Origin: an uncultured Gemmatimonadales bacterium
Lineage (GTDB): Bacteria > Gemmatimonadota > Gemmatimonadetes > Longimicrobiales > RSA9
Assembly: GCA_963798845.1 (NCBI GenBank)
Contig: CAWCUS010000005.1
Coordinates: 128,001-192,000, forward strand
DNA: 64,000 bases
Reading direction: 5' to 3'
The notes below the pieces were generated by a model. It did not search any database. It saw only the letters and a program-made list of their open reading frames with translations, and was not told where the DNA came from. The position numbers were made by a program, and so were the translations under genes. Each line of letters begins with the position of its first letter. The first letter of the stretch is position 1. Of this stretch, positions 47,792 through 54,689 are shown in pieces.

Positions 47792-48813
47792 GAGAACTGC
47801 TCCAGGAAACGGGTGTCGCCCTCGTACCACATGCGGATGTCCGGGACGCCGTACACCAGGATGGCGATGCGGCCGGGGCCCATGCCGAACGCGAACCCCG
47901 TGTACCGCTCGGGGTCGTAGCCCACGTTCTCGAACACGGCGGGATCCACCATGCCCGCTCCCATGATCTCCAGCCACCCCGTCCCCTTGCAGGTGCTGCA
48001 GCCCTTCCCGCCGCAGATCGCGCACGTCACGTCCACCTCGGCGCTCGGCTCCGTGAACGGGAAGAAGGAGGGCCGGAAGCGCGTGCGCGTGCCACTCCCG
48101 AAGAGCTTGCGGGCGAACTCGCTCAGCGTCGCCTTCAGGTCCACCAGCGTGATCCCCTCGTCCACCACGAGCCCTTCGATCTGCTCGAACGCGGGCGCGT
48201 GCGACGGGTCCCATGGATCGCGCCGGTAGACCAGCCCCGGCGCCAGGATGCGGATCGGGGGCTCGTGCGCCAGCATGGTCCGCACCTGCACGGGCGAGGT
48301 GTGGCTTCGCAGGAGAACGCCGTCGCCCAGGTAGAACGTGTCGCCCGGTGCCGCGGCCGGGTGGTCGAGCGGCGTGTTCAGAGCCTCGAAGTTGTGCCAG
48401 TCCGTCTCGGCCTCGGGGCCCGTGGCCCGGACGAAGCCCATGTCGCGGAAAATGCCATGGATCTCGTCCATCACCTGCGTCACGGGGTGCCTCGCCCCCC
48501 GCCAGTGGCGCCGGCCCGGGAGCGTGAGGTCCAGCGACGGACCGGCAGCGGTGGCGCCGGCCAGCTCCGCTTCCCTCGCCTCCAGCAGCGCTGTCACCAC
48601 GGCCTTGACCTCGTTCGCCCGCTTCCCCACCGCGGGTCGCTCCTCGGGCGGCATCTCGCCAAGCCGCCGCAGGATGGCCGTGAGGCGCCCGTCCTTGCGC
48701 CCCAGCAGCTCCACCCGCAGCCCTTCGAGGGCCGCCGCGTCGGCGGCTTCGGCCACCTGGCCGCGGGCCGTCCTCTCCAGCGCGTCCAGCGCTTCGATCA
48801 ACTCGCTCGCCAT
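47788..48813 (-). CDS. pheS: Phenylalanine-tRNA ligase alpha subunit
   Basis: LRSHTSPVQ, FRPSFFPFTEPSAE, CxxC..CxxC insert, GFAFGMG. Confidence 0.96.
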   Translation of the reverse strand: MASELIEALDALERTARGQVAEAADAAALEGLRVELLGRKDGRLTAILRRLGEMPPEERPAVGKRANEVKAVVTALLEAREAELAGATAAGPSLDLTLPGRRHWRGARHPVTQVMDEIHGIFRDMGFVRATGPEAETDWHNFEALNTPLDHPAAAPGDTFYLGDGVLLRSHTSPVQVRTMLAHEPPIRILAPGLVYRRDPWDPSHAPAFEQIEGLVVDEGITLVDLKATLSEFARKLFGSGTRTRFRPSFFPFTEPSAEVDVTCAICGGKGCSTCKGTGWLEIMGAGMVDPAVFENVGYDPERYTGFAFGMGPGRIAILVYGVPDIRMWYEGDTRFLEQFS

Positions 48814-48896
48814 TCCACGTCCCCGAAATCGAATCGCCCCCCGGCCCGTTGCTCGAGCCGAGGGGCGAAGGTGCTGTTCCGAAACAGCAATCGCAA

Positions 48897-49253
48897 CTAG
48901 TCGAGCTGAGCCTTGGCCTGCGTCACCAGCTCTCCGAAGGCTTCCGGCTCGCGCACCGCGAGGTCCGCCAGGACTTTCCGGTTCACCTCGATCCCCGCCC
49001 GCTTCAGGCCGTTCATGAACCGGCTGTAGCTGAGGTCGTGCTGGCGCGCCGCGGCGTTTATCCGCGAGATCCACAGGCGGCGGAACTCGCGCTTCTTGTT
49101 CTTCCGGTCACGGTACGAGTACTGCCAGCCGCGCTCCACCGCGTTCTTTGCGATGCGCCATAGCTTCGACCGCCCGCCGAAATAACCGCGGGCCGCCCGG
49201 AAATACTTCTTCTTCTTGCGGTGTCTCGACACCGCGTTCGTTGATCTCGGCAT
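48897..49253 (-). CDS. rplT: 50S ribosomal protein L20
   Basis: YRDRKNKKREFRRLWISRINAA, NRKVLADLA. Confidence 0.97.
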   Translation of the reverse strand: MPRSTNAVSRHRKKKKYFRAARGYFGGRSKLWRIAKNAVERGWQYSYRDRKNKKREFRRLWISRINAAARQHDLSYSRFMNGLKRAGIEVNRKVLADLAVREPEAFGELVTQAKAQLD

Positions 49254-50238: not shown

Positions 50239-52176
50239 CTACAACGCCTTGGACCCGATCTCGTCGCGCAGCTGTCCCAGGAAGTCTTCGCGACCGAGCA
50301 CGTCCTGCTTCTTCCCCGCGCCGTGCTTGCGCACGGCGACGGTCCCGGCCTCCACCTCTCGCTGCCCGACCACCGCAAGGTACGGCACCTTCTGCGTCTC
50401 GCCGTCGCGGATCTTGTAGCTCAGCGTCTCGGAGCGGTCGTCCAGAGTCGCCCGGACGCCGGCGTCCCGCAGCCGGTCGGCGAACGCGCGGGCATCGTCG
50501 GCCTGGTCATCCGTGATCGGGAGGACGCGCACCTGCTCGGGCGCCAGCCAGAGCGGGAAAGCGCCCGCGAAGTGCTCGATCAGGATGGCGATGAAGCGCT
50601 CGAGGGAGCCGAAGATCGCCCGGTGTATCACCACCGGCCGGTGCGGGTGGTTGTCCTCCCCCGTGTACTCCAGCTCGAAGCGTTCGGGCGCGGCGTAGTC
50701 GAGCTGGATCGTGCCCAGCTGCCAGCTCCGGCCTATTGCGTCCACCACGTCGAAGTCGATCTTGGGGCCGTAGAACGCGCCATCGCCCTCCTTGAGGTCG
50801 TACTCCAGGCCCAGCCCCTCCAGGGCATTGCGCAGCCCCGCCTCCGCCCGGTCCCACATCTCGTCGGTGCCGATGCGCTGCTCCGGGCGCGTGGCGAATT
50901 TCTTCGTATAGCTCAACCCCAGCGTCCCGTAGAAGTAGTCGATGAGCTCCACAAGCCGACGGACCTCATCGGCGATCTGCTCTTCCGTGATGAAGATGTG
51001 GGCATCGTCCTGCTGGAACTGGCGCACGCGCGTGAGCCCCGAGAGCGCGCCCGTGATCTCGTTCCGGTGCAGCACGTCCTGCGTGGCGAAGCGGAGCGGC
51101 AGCTCGCGGTAGGAGTGCGCGCGCGACTTGTAGAGAAGGTAATGGGACGGGCAGTTCATCGGCTTCATGCCGAAGTCGTGCTCGCCCGACTCCCTGTCGA
51201 GCACCAGGAACATGTTGTCCTGGTACTTGCCCCAGTGCCCCGAGAGCTCCCACAGCGCCTTGTTGTACAGCAGCGGCGTCTTGACCTGCTGGTAGCCGTT
51301 CTCCGCCAGGACGTCCCGCATCCACTCCACCAGGGCGTGGTAGATGGTCGTGCCGCGATCCGTCCAGAACGGAGCGCCGGGTGCCCATGGATGGAACATG
51401 AAGAGGTCCAGCTCGCGTCCCAGCTTCCGATGGTCCCGCCGCTTCGCCTCCTCCAACCGGACCAGGTACTCCTGGAGGTCCGCCTCCGTGAACCAGGCGG
51501 TGCCGTAGATGCGCTGGAGCATCTGCCGCTTCTCGTCCCCGCGCCAGTACGCCCCGGCCGTGGACAGCAGCTTGAAATGCGCAACCTCTCCCGTCGCGGG
51601 CACGTGCGGACCGCGGCACAGGTCGAGGAACGGTCCGTTCCGGTAAATCGTGATGACCTCGTCGTCGCCGAGCTCCTCGAGCCGCTCCAGCTTGAGCGGG
51701 TCGTCCGCGAACAGCGCCCTGGCCTCTGCCTTCCCGACCACGCGCCGCTCGAACGGAGAGTCCTCGCCGGCGACCTCTCGCATCGCCGTCTCGATCTGCG
51801 CCAGTTCCTCCGGGGTGAACGGCTCGTCCACCTCGAAGTCGTAGTAGAAGCCGTTCTCAATGGCGGGGCCGAACCCGATGCCGGCGCCCGGGCGAACTTT
51901 CCGGACCGCCGTGGCCAGCACGTGCGCGGCCGAGTGGCGCAGCACCTCGAGCGCCTCCGGGCTGCGCCGCGTGATGATCTCCAGCGCTGCGTCCCGCTCC
52001 AGCGGGCGCCCGAGGTCCACGACCTCGCCGTCCACCTTCGCCGCCAGCGCGGCGCGGGCCAGCCCTGGACCGATCCGTTCGGCAACGTCCCGGGCCGTCG
52101 CCCCACGCGGGACCTCCAGCGCCTTGCCGTCCGGCAGTCGGACGCGGATCACACCCTCTTCCGTTCCCTTCATCAC
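50239..52176 (-). CDS. thrS: Threonine-tRNA ligase
   Basis: TGS domain, RHSAAH, DLCRGPH, RDHRKLG, KPMNCP, GAFYGPKID, IHRAIFGS; start GTG 52176 or ATG 52173. Confidence 0.97.
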   Translation of the reverse strand: MMKGTEEGVIRVRLPDGKALEVPRGATARDVAERIGPGLARAALAAKVDGEVVDLGRPLERDAALEIITRRSPEALEVLRHSAAHVLATAVRKVRPGAGIGFGPAIENGFYYDFEVDEPFTPEELAQIETAMREVAGEDSPFERRVVGKAEARALFADDPLKLERLEELGDDEVITIYRNGPFLDLCRGPHVPATGEVAHFKLLSTAGAYWRGDEKRQMLQRIYGTAWFTEADLQEYLVRLEEAKRRDHRKLGRELDLFMFHPWAPGAPFWTDRGTTIYHALVEWMRDVLAENGYQQVKTPLLYNKALWELSGHWGKYQDNMFLVLDRESGEHDFGMKPMNCPSHYLLYKSRAHSYRELPLRFATQDVLHRNEITGALSGLTRVRQFQQDDAHIFITEEQIADEVRRLVELIDYFYGTLGLSYTKKFATRPEQRIGTDEMWDRAEAGLRNALEGLGLEYDLKEGDGAFYGPKIDFDVVDAIGRSWQLGTIQLDYAAPERFELEYTGEDNHPHRPVVIHRAIFGSLERFIAILIEHFAGAFPLWLAPEQVRVLPITDDQADDARAFADRLRDAGVRATLDDRSETLSYKIRDGETQKVPYLAVVGQREVEAGTVAVRKHGAGKKQDVLGREDFLGQLRDEIGSKAL

Positions 52177-52300
52177 TCGCTCCGCTCTCTTTCAGGCACC
52201 CGCCCACGCCAATCCAGCCGACCTGCCAACGACGCCGCCCGTCCACGCCGCTCCCGGCGGCCGGCCGCGACCGGCTTCCACCGCCATCCGACAGCGCCGG

Positions 52301-52337
52301 AAATGGAAACGGCCCCTCCGCGCGCCGGAGAGGCCGT
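52301..52337 (-). terminator. Attenuator terminator hairpin upstream of thrS
   Basis: ACGGCCTCTCCG-GCGCG-CGGAGGGGCCGT-TTCCATTT: 12-bp stem with an interrupted U tract. Confidence 0.7.
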
Positions 52338-52357
52338 CCGTCGGACGCGGGCGCCGG

Positions 52358-52444
52358 TTACGCCCGCAACGGGACAGACCTCCCCCGCGCTCCCGTGGCG
52401 CGCGAGGTGGTGGTCTCGGTGGAGACAGGCGTCGTTTCCCGCAT
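52358..52444 (-). CDS. Thr-rich leader peptide (28 aa) of thrS
   Basis: ATG..TAA ORF MRETTPVSTETTTSRATGARGRSVPLRA with 7 Thr codons in the first 17; not in the ORF track. Confidence 0.75.
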   Translation of the reverse strand: MRETTPVSTETTTSRATGARGRSVPLRA

Positions 52445-52450
52445 GCGGAT

Positions 52451-52480
52451 ACCATAGCCCCGCTGCCGCGGTGGCGTCAA
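52451..52480 (-). promoter_or_regulatory. Sigma70-type promoter giving a leaderless leader-peptide transcript
   Basis: TTGACG-18bp-TATGGT, then 6 nt, then the ATG of the leader peptide. Confidence 0.7.
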
Positions 52481-52625
52481 TGCGCGCCGCCGTCCGGCAT
52501 GTCCATTGCCTCGCGTCGACACGCGAATGCCACGCCGACGGCTTTTCGCCGCGCTCCCGTGGCTCTAGCTTTGGGAGTTCTCTTGCACAACCGCACTACC
52601 CCGGACAGAGGCTGACCCGTTGACG

Positions 52626-54689
52626 ATGACGTTGTTCGAACGCCTGCAGGATCTCGCCTACAACCTGCGGTGGGACTGGCACCGTCCCACACGTCGGCTC
52701 TTCTGTGAGCTCGACCCCGAGCTGTGGGAGCGCACGAGCCACAATCCCGTGGCGCTCCTGCGCCGTCTCGATCCGGCCGCGCCGCCGCCCGTGGACCGCC
52801 TGGAAGAGCGCGTCGACGACCTGTGGCGGGACCTCCACGACTATCTGGGCGCGCGCGACACATGGTATGGTCCCCCCGAAGAGCCAATGGACCGCCCCCT
52901 CGTCGCATATTTCTCGGCCGAGTACGGCCTGACGGAGTGCCTCCGGATCTACTCCGGCGGGCTCGGCATCCTCGCGGGCGACCACCTGAAGGCCGCCAGC
53001 GACCTGGGCCTCCCCCTCGTTGCCGTCGGGCTCCTCTATCGGGAGGGCTATTTCACCCAGCACGTGGATGCCGGTGGCCGCCAGCACGAGACCTTCCCGG
53101 CCGCGGACTTCGACGACCTCCCCCTGCACCCTGTGCACCGCAGGGACGGCTCGCGAATGCGAATCACCGTGCCGTTCCCGGGCCGGCCGCTCACGGCGGC
53201 GGTGTGGCGCGCGGACGTCGGTCGTGTCGCGCTCTACCTGCTCGACACCGACCTCCCCGAGAACGCTCCGGCCGACCGGGGGATCACCTCCCGGCTCTAT
53301 GGCGGAGACCAGGAGCTGCGGATCGCCCAGGAGATCATGCTGGGGATCGGCGGATACCGCGCCCTCTCGGCCATGCGGGTGAAGCCCCGCTCGTTCCACA
53401 TGAACGAGGGTCACTCCGCCTTCCTCGCCATCGAGCTCGTGCGCGACCTCATGATGGCCGAAGGTCTGGGCTTTGCCGCCGCTGTCGAAACGGCGCGAGA
53501 GCGCAACATCTTCACCACGCACACACCCGTTCCGGCAGGTCACGACCGCTTCGCACCGGCTCTCATGGAGCAGCACTTCGGTGCGATCGCTGCGGCGATG
53601 GGGATTTCCGTGACGGATCTCCTCGGCCTCGGCCGCGTGGATCCCGGTGACGAGGCGGAGCCGTTCACCATGACGGTGCTGGCGCTGCGCCTGGCCGCGC
53701 AGGCCAACGGCGTGAGCGCCGTCCACGGGCAGGTGTCGCGCGAGATGTGGCGGCCGCTCTGGCCCGACCGCGGCGTCGACCGCGTCCCGATCGGACACAT
53801 CACGAACGGCGTCCACCTCCCCAGCTGGGTCCACCCCGACATAGCCGCGACCTGGGGCAATGTCGCGCCGGCCCAGCTCGGCGTGGACGAGCGCGCCCCC
53901 AGCCTCGATCCGGCCACGCTCTGGGCCGCCCACCAGCAGAGGCGGCACCGGCTCGTCCACTACGTCAGGGAGCGCACGGGCGTGGAGCTCAGCCCGGAGG
54001 CGCTCACCATCGGCTTCGCGCGGCGCTTCGCCACCTACAAGCGCGCCACCCTCCTCTTCCAGGACCCGGACCGGCTCGCCCGTCTCCTGTCCGATCCCGA
54101 GCGTCCGGTCCAGCTCATCTTCGGGGGCAAGGCCCATCCGAAGGACCAGGGCGGGAAGGCGCTCATCCGACGGATCCTGGAAGCATCCCAGGAGGAACGC
54201 TTCCGCAACCGGATCGTCTTCCTCCCCGGCTACGGGATCGACCTGGCGCGCGTCCTGGTGCAGGGCGCCGACGTCTGGCTGAACAACCCACGCCGTCCGC
54301 TGGAGGCCAGCGGGACCAGCGGGATGAAGGCCGCGGCCAACGGGGTGCTGAACGTCAGCATCCTGGACGGGTGGTGGGACGAGGCATGGAGCGCCAGCGA
54401 GGGGCAGGACACCAGGCCGGGCTGGGCCATCGCCAGCGATGACGCCGCAGGCTCACCCGAGGCGGTGGACGAGCTCGACTACCAGGCTCTCTTCGCGCTG
54501 CTCGAGGAGGAGGTCGTACCCGCCTTCTACCACCGCGACGAGAGCGGCGCTCCGGCGGAATGGACGGCGCGAATGGTGGCGAGCGTCGCGACGATCGCGC
54601 CCGTCTTCAACACGAACCGGATGGTCCGCCAGTACGCAGAGCGCTACCGCCAGGCCGCCGAGCTCGCTGCCGTCGGCCGCGATCGCTGA
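52626..54689 (+). CDS. glgP: Alpha-glucan (glycogen/maltodextrin) phosphorylase
   Basis: YFSAEYGL, YSGGLGILAGDHLK, NEGH, FTTHTPVPAGHD, GFARRFATYKR, EASGTSGMK (PLP Lys). Confidence 0.94.
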   Translation: MTLFERLQDLAYNLRWDWHRPTRRLFCELDPELWERTSHNPVALLRRLDPAAPPPVDRLEERVDDLWRDLHDYLGARDTWYGPPEEPMDRPLVAYFSAEYGLTECLRIYSGGLGILAGDHLKAASDLGLPLVAVGLLYREGYFTQHVDAGGRQHETFPAADFDDLPLHPVHRRDGSRMRITVPFPGRPLTAAVWRADVGRVALYLLDTDLPENAPADRGITSRLYGGDQELRIAQEIMLGIGGYRALSAMRVKPRSFHMNEGHSAFLAIELVRDLMMAEGLGFAAAVETARERNIFTTHTPVPAGHDRFAPALMEQHFGAIAAAMGISVTDLLGLGRVDPGDEAEPFTMTVLALRLAAQANGVSAVHGQVSREMWRPLWPDRGVDRVPIGHITNGVHLPSWVHPDIAATWGNVAPAQLGVDERAPSLDPATLWAAHQQRRHRLVHYVRERTGVELSPEALTIGFARRFATYKRATLLFQDPDRLARLLSDPERPVQLIFGGKAHPKDQGGKALIRRILEASQEERFRNRIVFLPGYGIDLARVLVQGADVWLNNPRRPLEASGTSGMKAAANGVLNVSILDGWWDEAWSASEGQDTRPGWAIASDDAAGSPEAVDELDYQALFALLEEEVVPAFYHRDESGAPAEWTARMVASVATIAPVFNTNRMVRQYAERYRQAAELAAVGRDR

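Follow-up and report, generated by a model that had tools for sequence, protein, structure and literature searches.

The thrS gene, which encodes threonine--tRNA ligase (ThrRS), is probably preceded in an uncultured Gemmatimonadales bacterium by a ribosome-mediated transcription attenuator, in which the translation of a threonine-rich leader peptide would sense the supply of charged tRNA-Thr. The leader lies on the minus strand of a 64,000-nucleotide stretch of DNA (hereafter the window; GenBank assembly GCA_963798845.1, contig CAWCUS010000005.1, positions 128,001 to 192,000; GTDB order Longimicrobiales), which belongs to a genome of 4.26 Mb with 70.5% GC. This reading is carried by direct observations, namely the elements themselves, their conservation and geometry, the covariation of the terminator, and the agreement between leader codons and downstream gene in a set of sister leaders. 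Downstream of thrS, all on the minus strand, infC, rpmI, rplT and pheS follow in this order, and they are probably under the control of the same attenuator.

The leader consists of a promoter, a short upstream open reading frame (uORF) rich in threonine (Thr) codons, and four RNA segments, numbered 1 to 4, that can pair in alternative ways. In window coordinates, its parts and its target gene are as follows.

52451..52480, minus strand: sigma-70-like promoter, with the -35 box TTGACG at 52480-52475, an 18-nt spacer and the -10 box TATGGT at 52456-52451
52358..52444, minus strand: leader uORF of 28 sense codons plus TAA (52360-52358), with its ATG at 52444-52442, 6 nt after the -10 box
52406..52435, minus strand: regulatory Thr codons 4, 5, 9, 11, 12 and 13; the seventh, codon 17, is at 52396-52394
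52377..52416, minus strand: 1:2 hairpin (anti-antiterminator), -22.4 kcal/mol, its 5' strand overlapping Thr codons 11-13
52345..52369, minus strand: inner hairpin, its loop containing the stop codon of the uORF, -17.1 kcal/mol
52322..52390, minus strand: antiterminator 2:3, in which segment 2 (52390-52370) pairs with segment 3 (52343-52322) around the inner hairpin
52301..52337, minus strand: putative terminator (3:4), a 12-bp hairpin at 52337-52309 (-24.4 kcal/mol) followed by an interrupted U-tract at 52308-52301
50239..52176, minus strand: thrS, threonine--tRNA ligase (TIGR00418, 677.8 bits), 125 nt downstream of the leader

The promoter was the only sigma-70-like site that a promoter scan called in 51900-52900 (mean of shuffles, 0.0). 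An earlier note on this DNA, written from its letters, had proposed the series TTGACG, 18 nt, TATGGT, 6 nt and an ATG without a Shine-Dalgarno sequence, and each of these elements was found in place on the minus strand. The 28-codon Thr-rich peptide that it had translated was likewise recovered without a change, with Thr at codons 4, 5, 9, 11, 12, 13 and 17, so that seven of the 28 codons are Thr and six of these fall inside 10 codons. The 6 nt ahead of the uORF ATG leave no room for a GGAG-like Shine-Dalgarno sequence and, judged from this spacing, the mRNA is probably leaderless. Within the genome the uORF stands alone: when ATG-started open reading frames (ORFs) of 8-45 codons ending 5-45 nt ahead of 1611 terminator-like sites were screened, it was the only one with at least five Thr in 10 codons.

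Folding of the leader reproduced the four-segment layout (1:2, 2:3 and 3:4) that had been drawn for it. The 1:2 hairpin is the first to appear, in prefix folds of 62-112 nt, and with segment 1 masked the antiterminator 2:3 reaches a total of -52.1 kcal/mol, inner hairpin included. A 2:3 helix of 13 bp had been claimed; the helix is indeed present, but in the fold it is longer than that.

This layout suggests a course of events whose steps we infer from sequence: the start of transcription, translation of the uORF, termination at the hairpin and the threonine response. Transcription would start at or beside the A of the uORF ATG, as its spacing from the -10 box indicates, and a ribosome would translate the 28-codon uORF as the polymerase proceeds. 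When Thr-tRNA is ample, the ribosome would proceed to the stop codon and occupy segment 2, segments 3 and 4 would pair, and most transcripts would end before thrS. When Thr-tRNA is scarce, a ribosome stalled at Thr codons 4-13 would cover segment 1 and leave segment 2 free, allowing 2:3 to form; there would then be no terminator, and the polymerase would read into thrS. If no ribosome is present, the 1:2 hairpin would form first and termination would win again, a branch that depends on kinetics.

Leaders of the same make-up were found in front of thrS in relatives. Loci of thrS were sought in 41 genomes of the order, the window's own included, which returned 30 loci, and 12 named Gemmatimonadota loci were added. 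A Thr-containing uORF 120-270 nt upstream of thrS was present in 13 relatives, and in all 14 leaders (the window and the 13 relatives) the uORF stop lies 19-31 nt ahead of the terminator hairpin. A promoter pattern (TTGMHN, 16-19 nt, TANNNT) precedes the uORF in 13 of the 14, against a genome background of 0.032 per kb per strand. The terminator is well supported: across the 14 leaders 89.0% of its cells are paired compared with 79.6% in shuffles (0/500 reach the observed value), slid controls give 46-57%, and 19 cells are changed on both sides. No such leader was found before thrS in the Gemmatimonadales-type loci among the 12 named ones.

A covariance model was built from the 14 leaders, reaching from the uORF ATG to the terminator tail and holding no thrS sequence, and searched over 151 genomes of the order. 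At E <=0.01 it matched in 75 of them (40/50 in family f1, 10/50 in f2 and 24/50 in f3). In 29 of the 30 best model loci thrS lay directly downstream, an adjacency that the model does not select for; the thirtieth precedes an aspartate kinase gene. In the window's own genome the thrS leader scored 93.4 bits and the next match 21.6 bits (E 0.37), and the model found no second copy. The tally of leaders used below is made up of the 29 thrS-adjacent loci among the best 30 and of L146, a thrS-adjacent secondary match in genome G041, giving 30 leaders from 30 genomes. Three genomes, G017, G020 and G148, are flagged as unpublished; G017 and G148 enter the counts, and G020 is one without a thrS leader.

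The 30 thrS-adjacent leaders keep a fixed geometry. The distance from stop codon to terminator is 18-31 nt in every one, the promoter pattern stands upstream of the uORF in 27, and within 10 codons at least four Thr are found in 26, at least five in 21 and at least six in 15. The comparison of thrS upstream regions that the earlier note had suggested thereby showed, in 30 genomes of the order, a Thr-rich uORF with a promoter, a terminator and a segment able to form an antiterminator. The leaderless design recurs in part: in 10 of the 30 the spacing from the end of the -10 box to the ATG is again exactly 6 nt, but the remaining leaders mostly have a longer 5' untranslated region, and several carry GGAG(G) 4-11 nt ahead of the ATG. 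Both the spacing of the ATG from the -10 box and the GGAG(G) boxes were counted as support for uORF translation.

Apart from the Thr codons and a GC-driven Arg/Gly/Ala tail, the leader peptide is not conserved among the 30 leaders. This bears on the idea that the main product is the terminated leader RNA or the 28-residue peptide, acting in trans, with thrS control secondary. Such a role has a precedent in rnTrpL and peTrpL of Sinorhizobium, a small RNA and a peptide derived from an attenuator, as described in PMC6614838 and PMC7298713. Given how little of the peptide is kept, and given thrS adjacency in 29 of the 30 best loci, we consider a main function in trans highly improbable; it would in any case be compatible with attenuation.

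The attenuation switch itself was examined with an alignment-free pairing test that had been fixed in advance. Transcripts were folded up to the terminator loop and masked to 12 nt past the codon in the ribosomal A-site, and the share of the terminator 5' arm paired with upstream sequence was read out, with dinucleotide shuffles of the intervening sequence as control. In the window, 0.92-0.95 of the 5' arm was paired upstream with the A-site at codons 1-15; once it stood at codon 17 or later, up to the stop, the share was ~0.4-0.58, so a stall at Thr 17 should not lead to antitermination. Pairing at the window locus was 0.92 compared with 0.60 in shuffles, of which 3 of 100 were as high. Over 14 loci with the A-site at the middle Thr codon, the mean was 0.852, compared with 0.645 (sd 0.051) in shuffled controls; every locus exceeded its own shuffled mean, and none of 10,000 resampled means reached 0.852. 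The result was replicated at 16 loci outside the test design (0.837 vs 0.649, sd 0.044; 16/16 above), where pairing came to 0.293 once the ribosome was placed on the stop codon. Followed codon by codon in the leaders examined, pairing is high on the Thr run and falls within one to four codons past it. In silico, then, the antiterminator and the ribosome-position geometry that classical attenuators require are both present, and the proposal that stalling at Thr codons frees 2:3 for read-through into thrS agrees with the stalling simulation at 14/14 and 16/16 loci.

These data also speak to the simplest alternative, a chance ORF with chance hairpins in intergenic DNA of 70.5% GC. ORFs and stable folds are plentiful in GC-rich DNA, the fold of the whole leader has a z-score of only -2.51, and shuffled controls alone already give 0.6-0.7 pairing of the terminator arm. 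The fixed geometry in 30 genomes, the covarying terminator and the uniqueness of the leader in its genome already contradict chance, and we give it next to no credence.

Several observations weigh against the attenuator reading or reduce the force of its support. The Thr richness of model matches is partly selected, because the model contains the Thr-codon region, and four of the 30 leaders (in G011, G073, G114 and G041) have at most three Thr in any 10 codons. The thrS leader was not found in many genomes of the order, including G012, G005 and G020, whose ThrRS is 76-77% identical, and 76 of the 151 order genomes lack a model match. Relatives are not independent of one another, so the statistics are overstated. 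The antiterminator, when projected on a structure-blind alignment, gave a weak signal, with 61.3% paired vs 57.5% in shuffles (7/500 reach the observed value) and the same 57.5% when slid by -2; between genera its register shifts, which makes it harder to test by alignment. At equilibrium, and with no ribosome, the truncated window RNA already has its 5' arm 0.91 paired, and the 1:2 hairpin would therefore matter only kinetically. Duplex tests were mixed: a swap test gave 497/20,000, the own duplex beat its shuffles at <=0.05 in only five of the 14 loci, and one locus did worse than its shuffles (0.92). They were replaced by the pairing-probability test because their results depended on the assumed ribosome footprint.

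The window's terminator also counts on this side. The 12-bp hairpin claimed for it stands, but its tail is a weak, interrupted U-tract (three U, CCA, three U), and a consensus terminator scan of 51900-52900 called none. We retained the hairpin as a candidate terminator despite the scan because of its fold and the excess of paired cells across the 14 leaders; in most relatives the T-run after the terminator is much more continuous than in the window.

The covariance model also detected leaders with the same terminator design and other codons, in front of genes that match those codons. Leaders found before genes other than thrS include those listed here.

L143, L144, L147, L155, L156, L158 and L160, in the order: His-rich, upstream of hisG or hisD
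L167, L171 and L173, in other families of the class: His-rich, upstream of hisD, hisG or hisC
L141, L145, L149 and L140: before aspartate kinase, three of them Thr/Met/Ile-rich and one Thr-rich
L148: Thr/Met, before thrB
L168 and L170: Ile-rich, before citramalate synthase (cimA)
L153: Cys/Met-containing, before an SfnG-like monooxygenase gene

All ten His-rich leaders, with 5-7 His codons, stand upstream of hisG, hisD or hisC (L143 and L147 are from genomes flagged as unpublished). The model matched 12 of 151 sampled genomes of the phylum at E <=0.001, and of the nine matches that lie outside the order none was before thrS. Three of these nine are His leaders, two are Ile-rich and precede citramalate synthase, two more precede citramalate synthase and leuC, one precedes a frame without a family, and one was unscanned. 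When the thrS leaders of four genomes were compared with the aspartate-kinase and thrB leaders, 35 columns were invariant and mean column identity was 67%; what they have in common is therefore the scaffold, while the regulatory codons vary. The leaders before threonine-pathway, isoleucine-pathway and sulfur-assimilation genes have a core almost identical to that of some thrS leaders. The sister leaders are the strongest independent support for amino-acid-specific sensing.

They also bear on a second alternative, in which the leader is an attenuator coupled to translation and registers translation capacity in general, or works by Rho-dependent polarity, with the Thr codons kept as an ACG/ACC pairing strand. 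The weak U-tract of the window would fit factor-assisted termination, in the free fold of some relatives (L098) a complementary stretch further downstream pairs with the run of Thr codons, and the four Thr-poor leaders also speak for this explanation. His codons before his genes in ten of ten cases, and Ile codons before citramalate synthase, are hard to account for without amino-acid-specific sensing, and Thr enrichment sits in the same place in 26 of the 30 leaders despite differing nucleotide sequences. We regard general or Rho-dependent control as unlikely.

It is an evenly balanced matter whether a single attenuator scaffold, with the thrS leader as one of its copies, was duplicated and re-coded in Gemmatimonadota by swapping the regulatory codons, giving a phylum-wide regulon. 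We give the same even odds to a re-coding that spans Thr before thrS and Thr/Met/Ile before aspartate kinase and thrB; possibly it extends to Ile before citramalate synthase and to Cys/Met before the SfnG-like enzyme. That the uORF start would flip from leaderless to Shine-Dalgarno-led from genus to genus, with the switch unchanged, has in our view about an even chance of being right. The shared columns, together with the fact that one model finds thrS, ask, thrB, his and cimA leaders, support a re-coded scaffold in part. In the window's own genome, tblastn with relatives' hisG, hisD and thrB frames gave none at E 1e-30 under a raised word threshold, a blank that may be technical. The sole find was an aspartate kinase homologue (C6:1017279-1018493), whose upstream 900 nt contain no leader-like uORF.

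The established modes of thrS control are of a different kind. T-box leaders of Bacillota thrS genes and the translational operator of Escherichia coli ThrRS both make thrS expression depend on the state of tRNA-Thr or ThrRS; they do so by direct binding of tRNA or ThrRS and have no uORF, whereas the window leader has a uORF and no T-box match. A third alternative follows from these precedents, namely that the leader serves as a binding site for a protein or a tRNA, as in E. coli-type ThrRS autoregulation or in a T-box-like manner, and that the uORF is incidental. One feature in its favour is a structured spacer that separates the terminator from the start of thrS.

52177..52300, minus strand: GC-rich structured spacer from terminator to thrS, with a GGAG box 6 nt upstream of an ATG at 52173

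This 124-nt spacer folds at -77 kcal/mol (z -2.64), and none of 200 shuffles was as stable. It is not conserved even within the genus (~132 nt from terminator end to thrS here vs ~55 nt in a same-genus relative), whereas uORF, antiterminator and terminator are. An Rfam scan of the window found three tRNAs only and left the leader without a match; neither Thr_leader (RF00506), at gathering score, nor the T-box model matched in the window, and no Rfam family, these two included, matched 52100-52650 at E <=10. Direct binding of a protein or tRNA is accordingly a very unlikely explanation.

Leader-peptide attenuation has closer counterparts. The enterobacterial thrL leader (Rfam Thr_leader, RF00506) is Thr-rich, forms alternative hairpins with an intrinsic terminator and senses Thr-tRNA. 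It controls thrABC and carries Ile codons as well, whereas the window leader precedes thrS and has no RF00506 match; the functional counterparts of thrL among the window's relatives are the leaders with Thr/Met/Ile codons that precede aspartate kinase and thrB. In E. coli, pheM-pheST, part of the thrS-infC-rpmI-rplT-pheST neighbourhood, is a leader-peptide attenuator with cognate codons before a gene for an aminoacyl-tRNA synthetase. The likeness to the window leader lies in an attenuator with cognate codons before a synthetase gene, and the differences are that pheM has Phe codons and controls pheST, whereas the window leader has Thr codons, controls thrS and matches no Rfam family. PMC1262725 names pheST as a gamma-proteobacterial example of an attenuator, describes classical attenuators before the Streptomyces trpS and leuS genes for aminoacyl-tRNA synthetases, and states that no conserved structure was found for threonine genes of Actinobacteria. 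The Streptomyces cases resemble ours in being classical attenuators before synthetase genes in a high-GC lineage; they concern other amino acids in another phylum.

Another close case is thrL of Streptomyces lividans TK24, which in PMC8079986 is a leaderless frame of 18 codons with two Thr, directly upstream of thrS and listed as an attenuator; the authors found a hairpin and no U-rich tract, and called termination unclear. The likeness, a leaderless Thr uORF before thrS, is a functional resemblance. The Actinomycetota leader has two Thr, whereas that of the window has seven, with an explicit 1:2/2:3/3:4 switch, and is kept in 30 genomes. The regulatory mode had been put forward earlier as one not known to be described for the lineage. 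With thrL-thrS of S. lividans reported, thrS is not a new target, but the lineage and the RNA family are new. A literature search found no paper that joins Gemmatimonadota, leader peptide and attenuation, and none that joins thrS with classical attenuation or threonine codons; the survey by Lopatovskaya et al. 2010 may hold earlier predictions.

Attenuation by a leader peptide would add a third, well-supported mode to the control of the essential thrS gene, beside the T-box and the ThrRS operator. It would also mean that classical leader-peptide attenuation, studied mostly in Proteobacteria and Actinomycetota, is widely used in Gemmatimonadota, a soil phylum for which, to our knowledge, almost no regulatory biology is on record. 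The textbook mechanism of attenuation is left unchanged by the thrS leader. The more novel part would be a common scaffold that is re-coded throughout the phylum and takes leaderless and Shine-Dalgarno starts interchangeably, and a scaffold with interchangeable codons and start modes offers a natural test set for the evolution of switches. Because no Rfam family matches, the conserved scaffold could seed an RNA family for annotation.

The surroundings of the leader were delimited as follows.

52620..54689, plus strand: divergent alpha-glucan-phosphorylase-like gene (PF00343 and PF11897), which bounds the leader's intergenic region

The upstream neighbour is thus a divergent plus-strand gene, and the leader therefore sits in a 443-nt divergent intergenic region, 52177-52619. 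A minus-strand ORF at 52596-54137 (513 codons) was considered as the upstream gene and rejected: it has no family match, overlaps the glucan-phosphorylase-like gene on the plus strand and is a spurious, GC-rich shadow ORF. Downstream, no Phe-rich leader like E. coli pheM was found in the ~83-nt gap between rplT and the likely pheS start (48813-48897, minus strand). The thrS gene at 50239..52176 gave the only full ThrRS match in the genome, and its product is 70-75% identical to the closest named records (Longimicrobiales/Longimicrobiaceae, Gemmatimonadota). In some relatives (L123 of G108, L129 of G124, and thrS matches of genus g28) ThrRS is short: the match starts at query residue 66-100, the N-terminal TGS-like part is apparently missing, and the Thr leader is still present.

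The screen of terminator-like sites gave nothing convincing genome-wide for other leader peptides (His, Trp, Phe, Leu and others). Outside the window, at C6:359840-359965 on the plus strand, there is an ORF of 41 codons, among them three Trp codons in a row, whose end lies 22 nt ahead of a terminator-like site.

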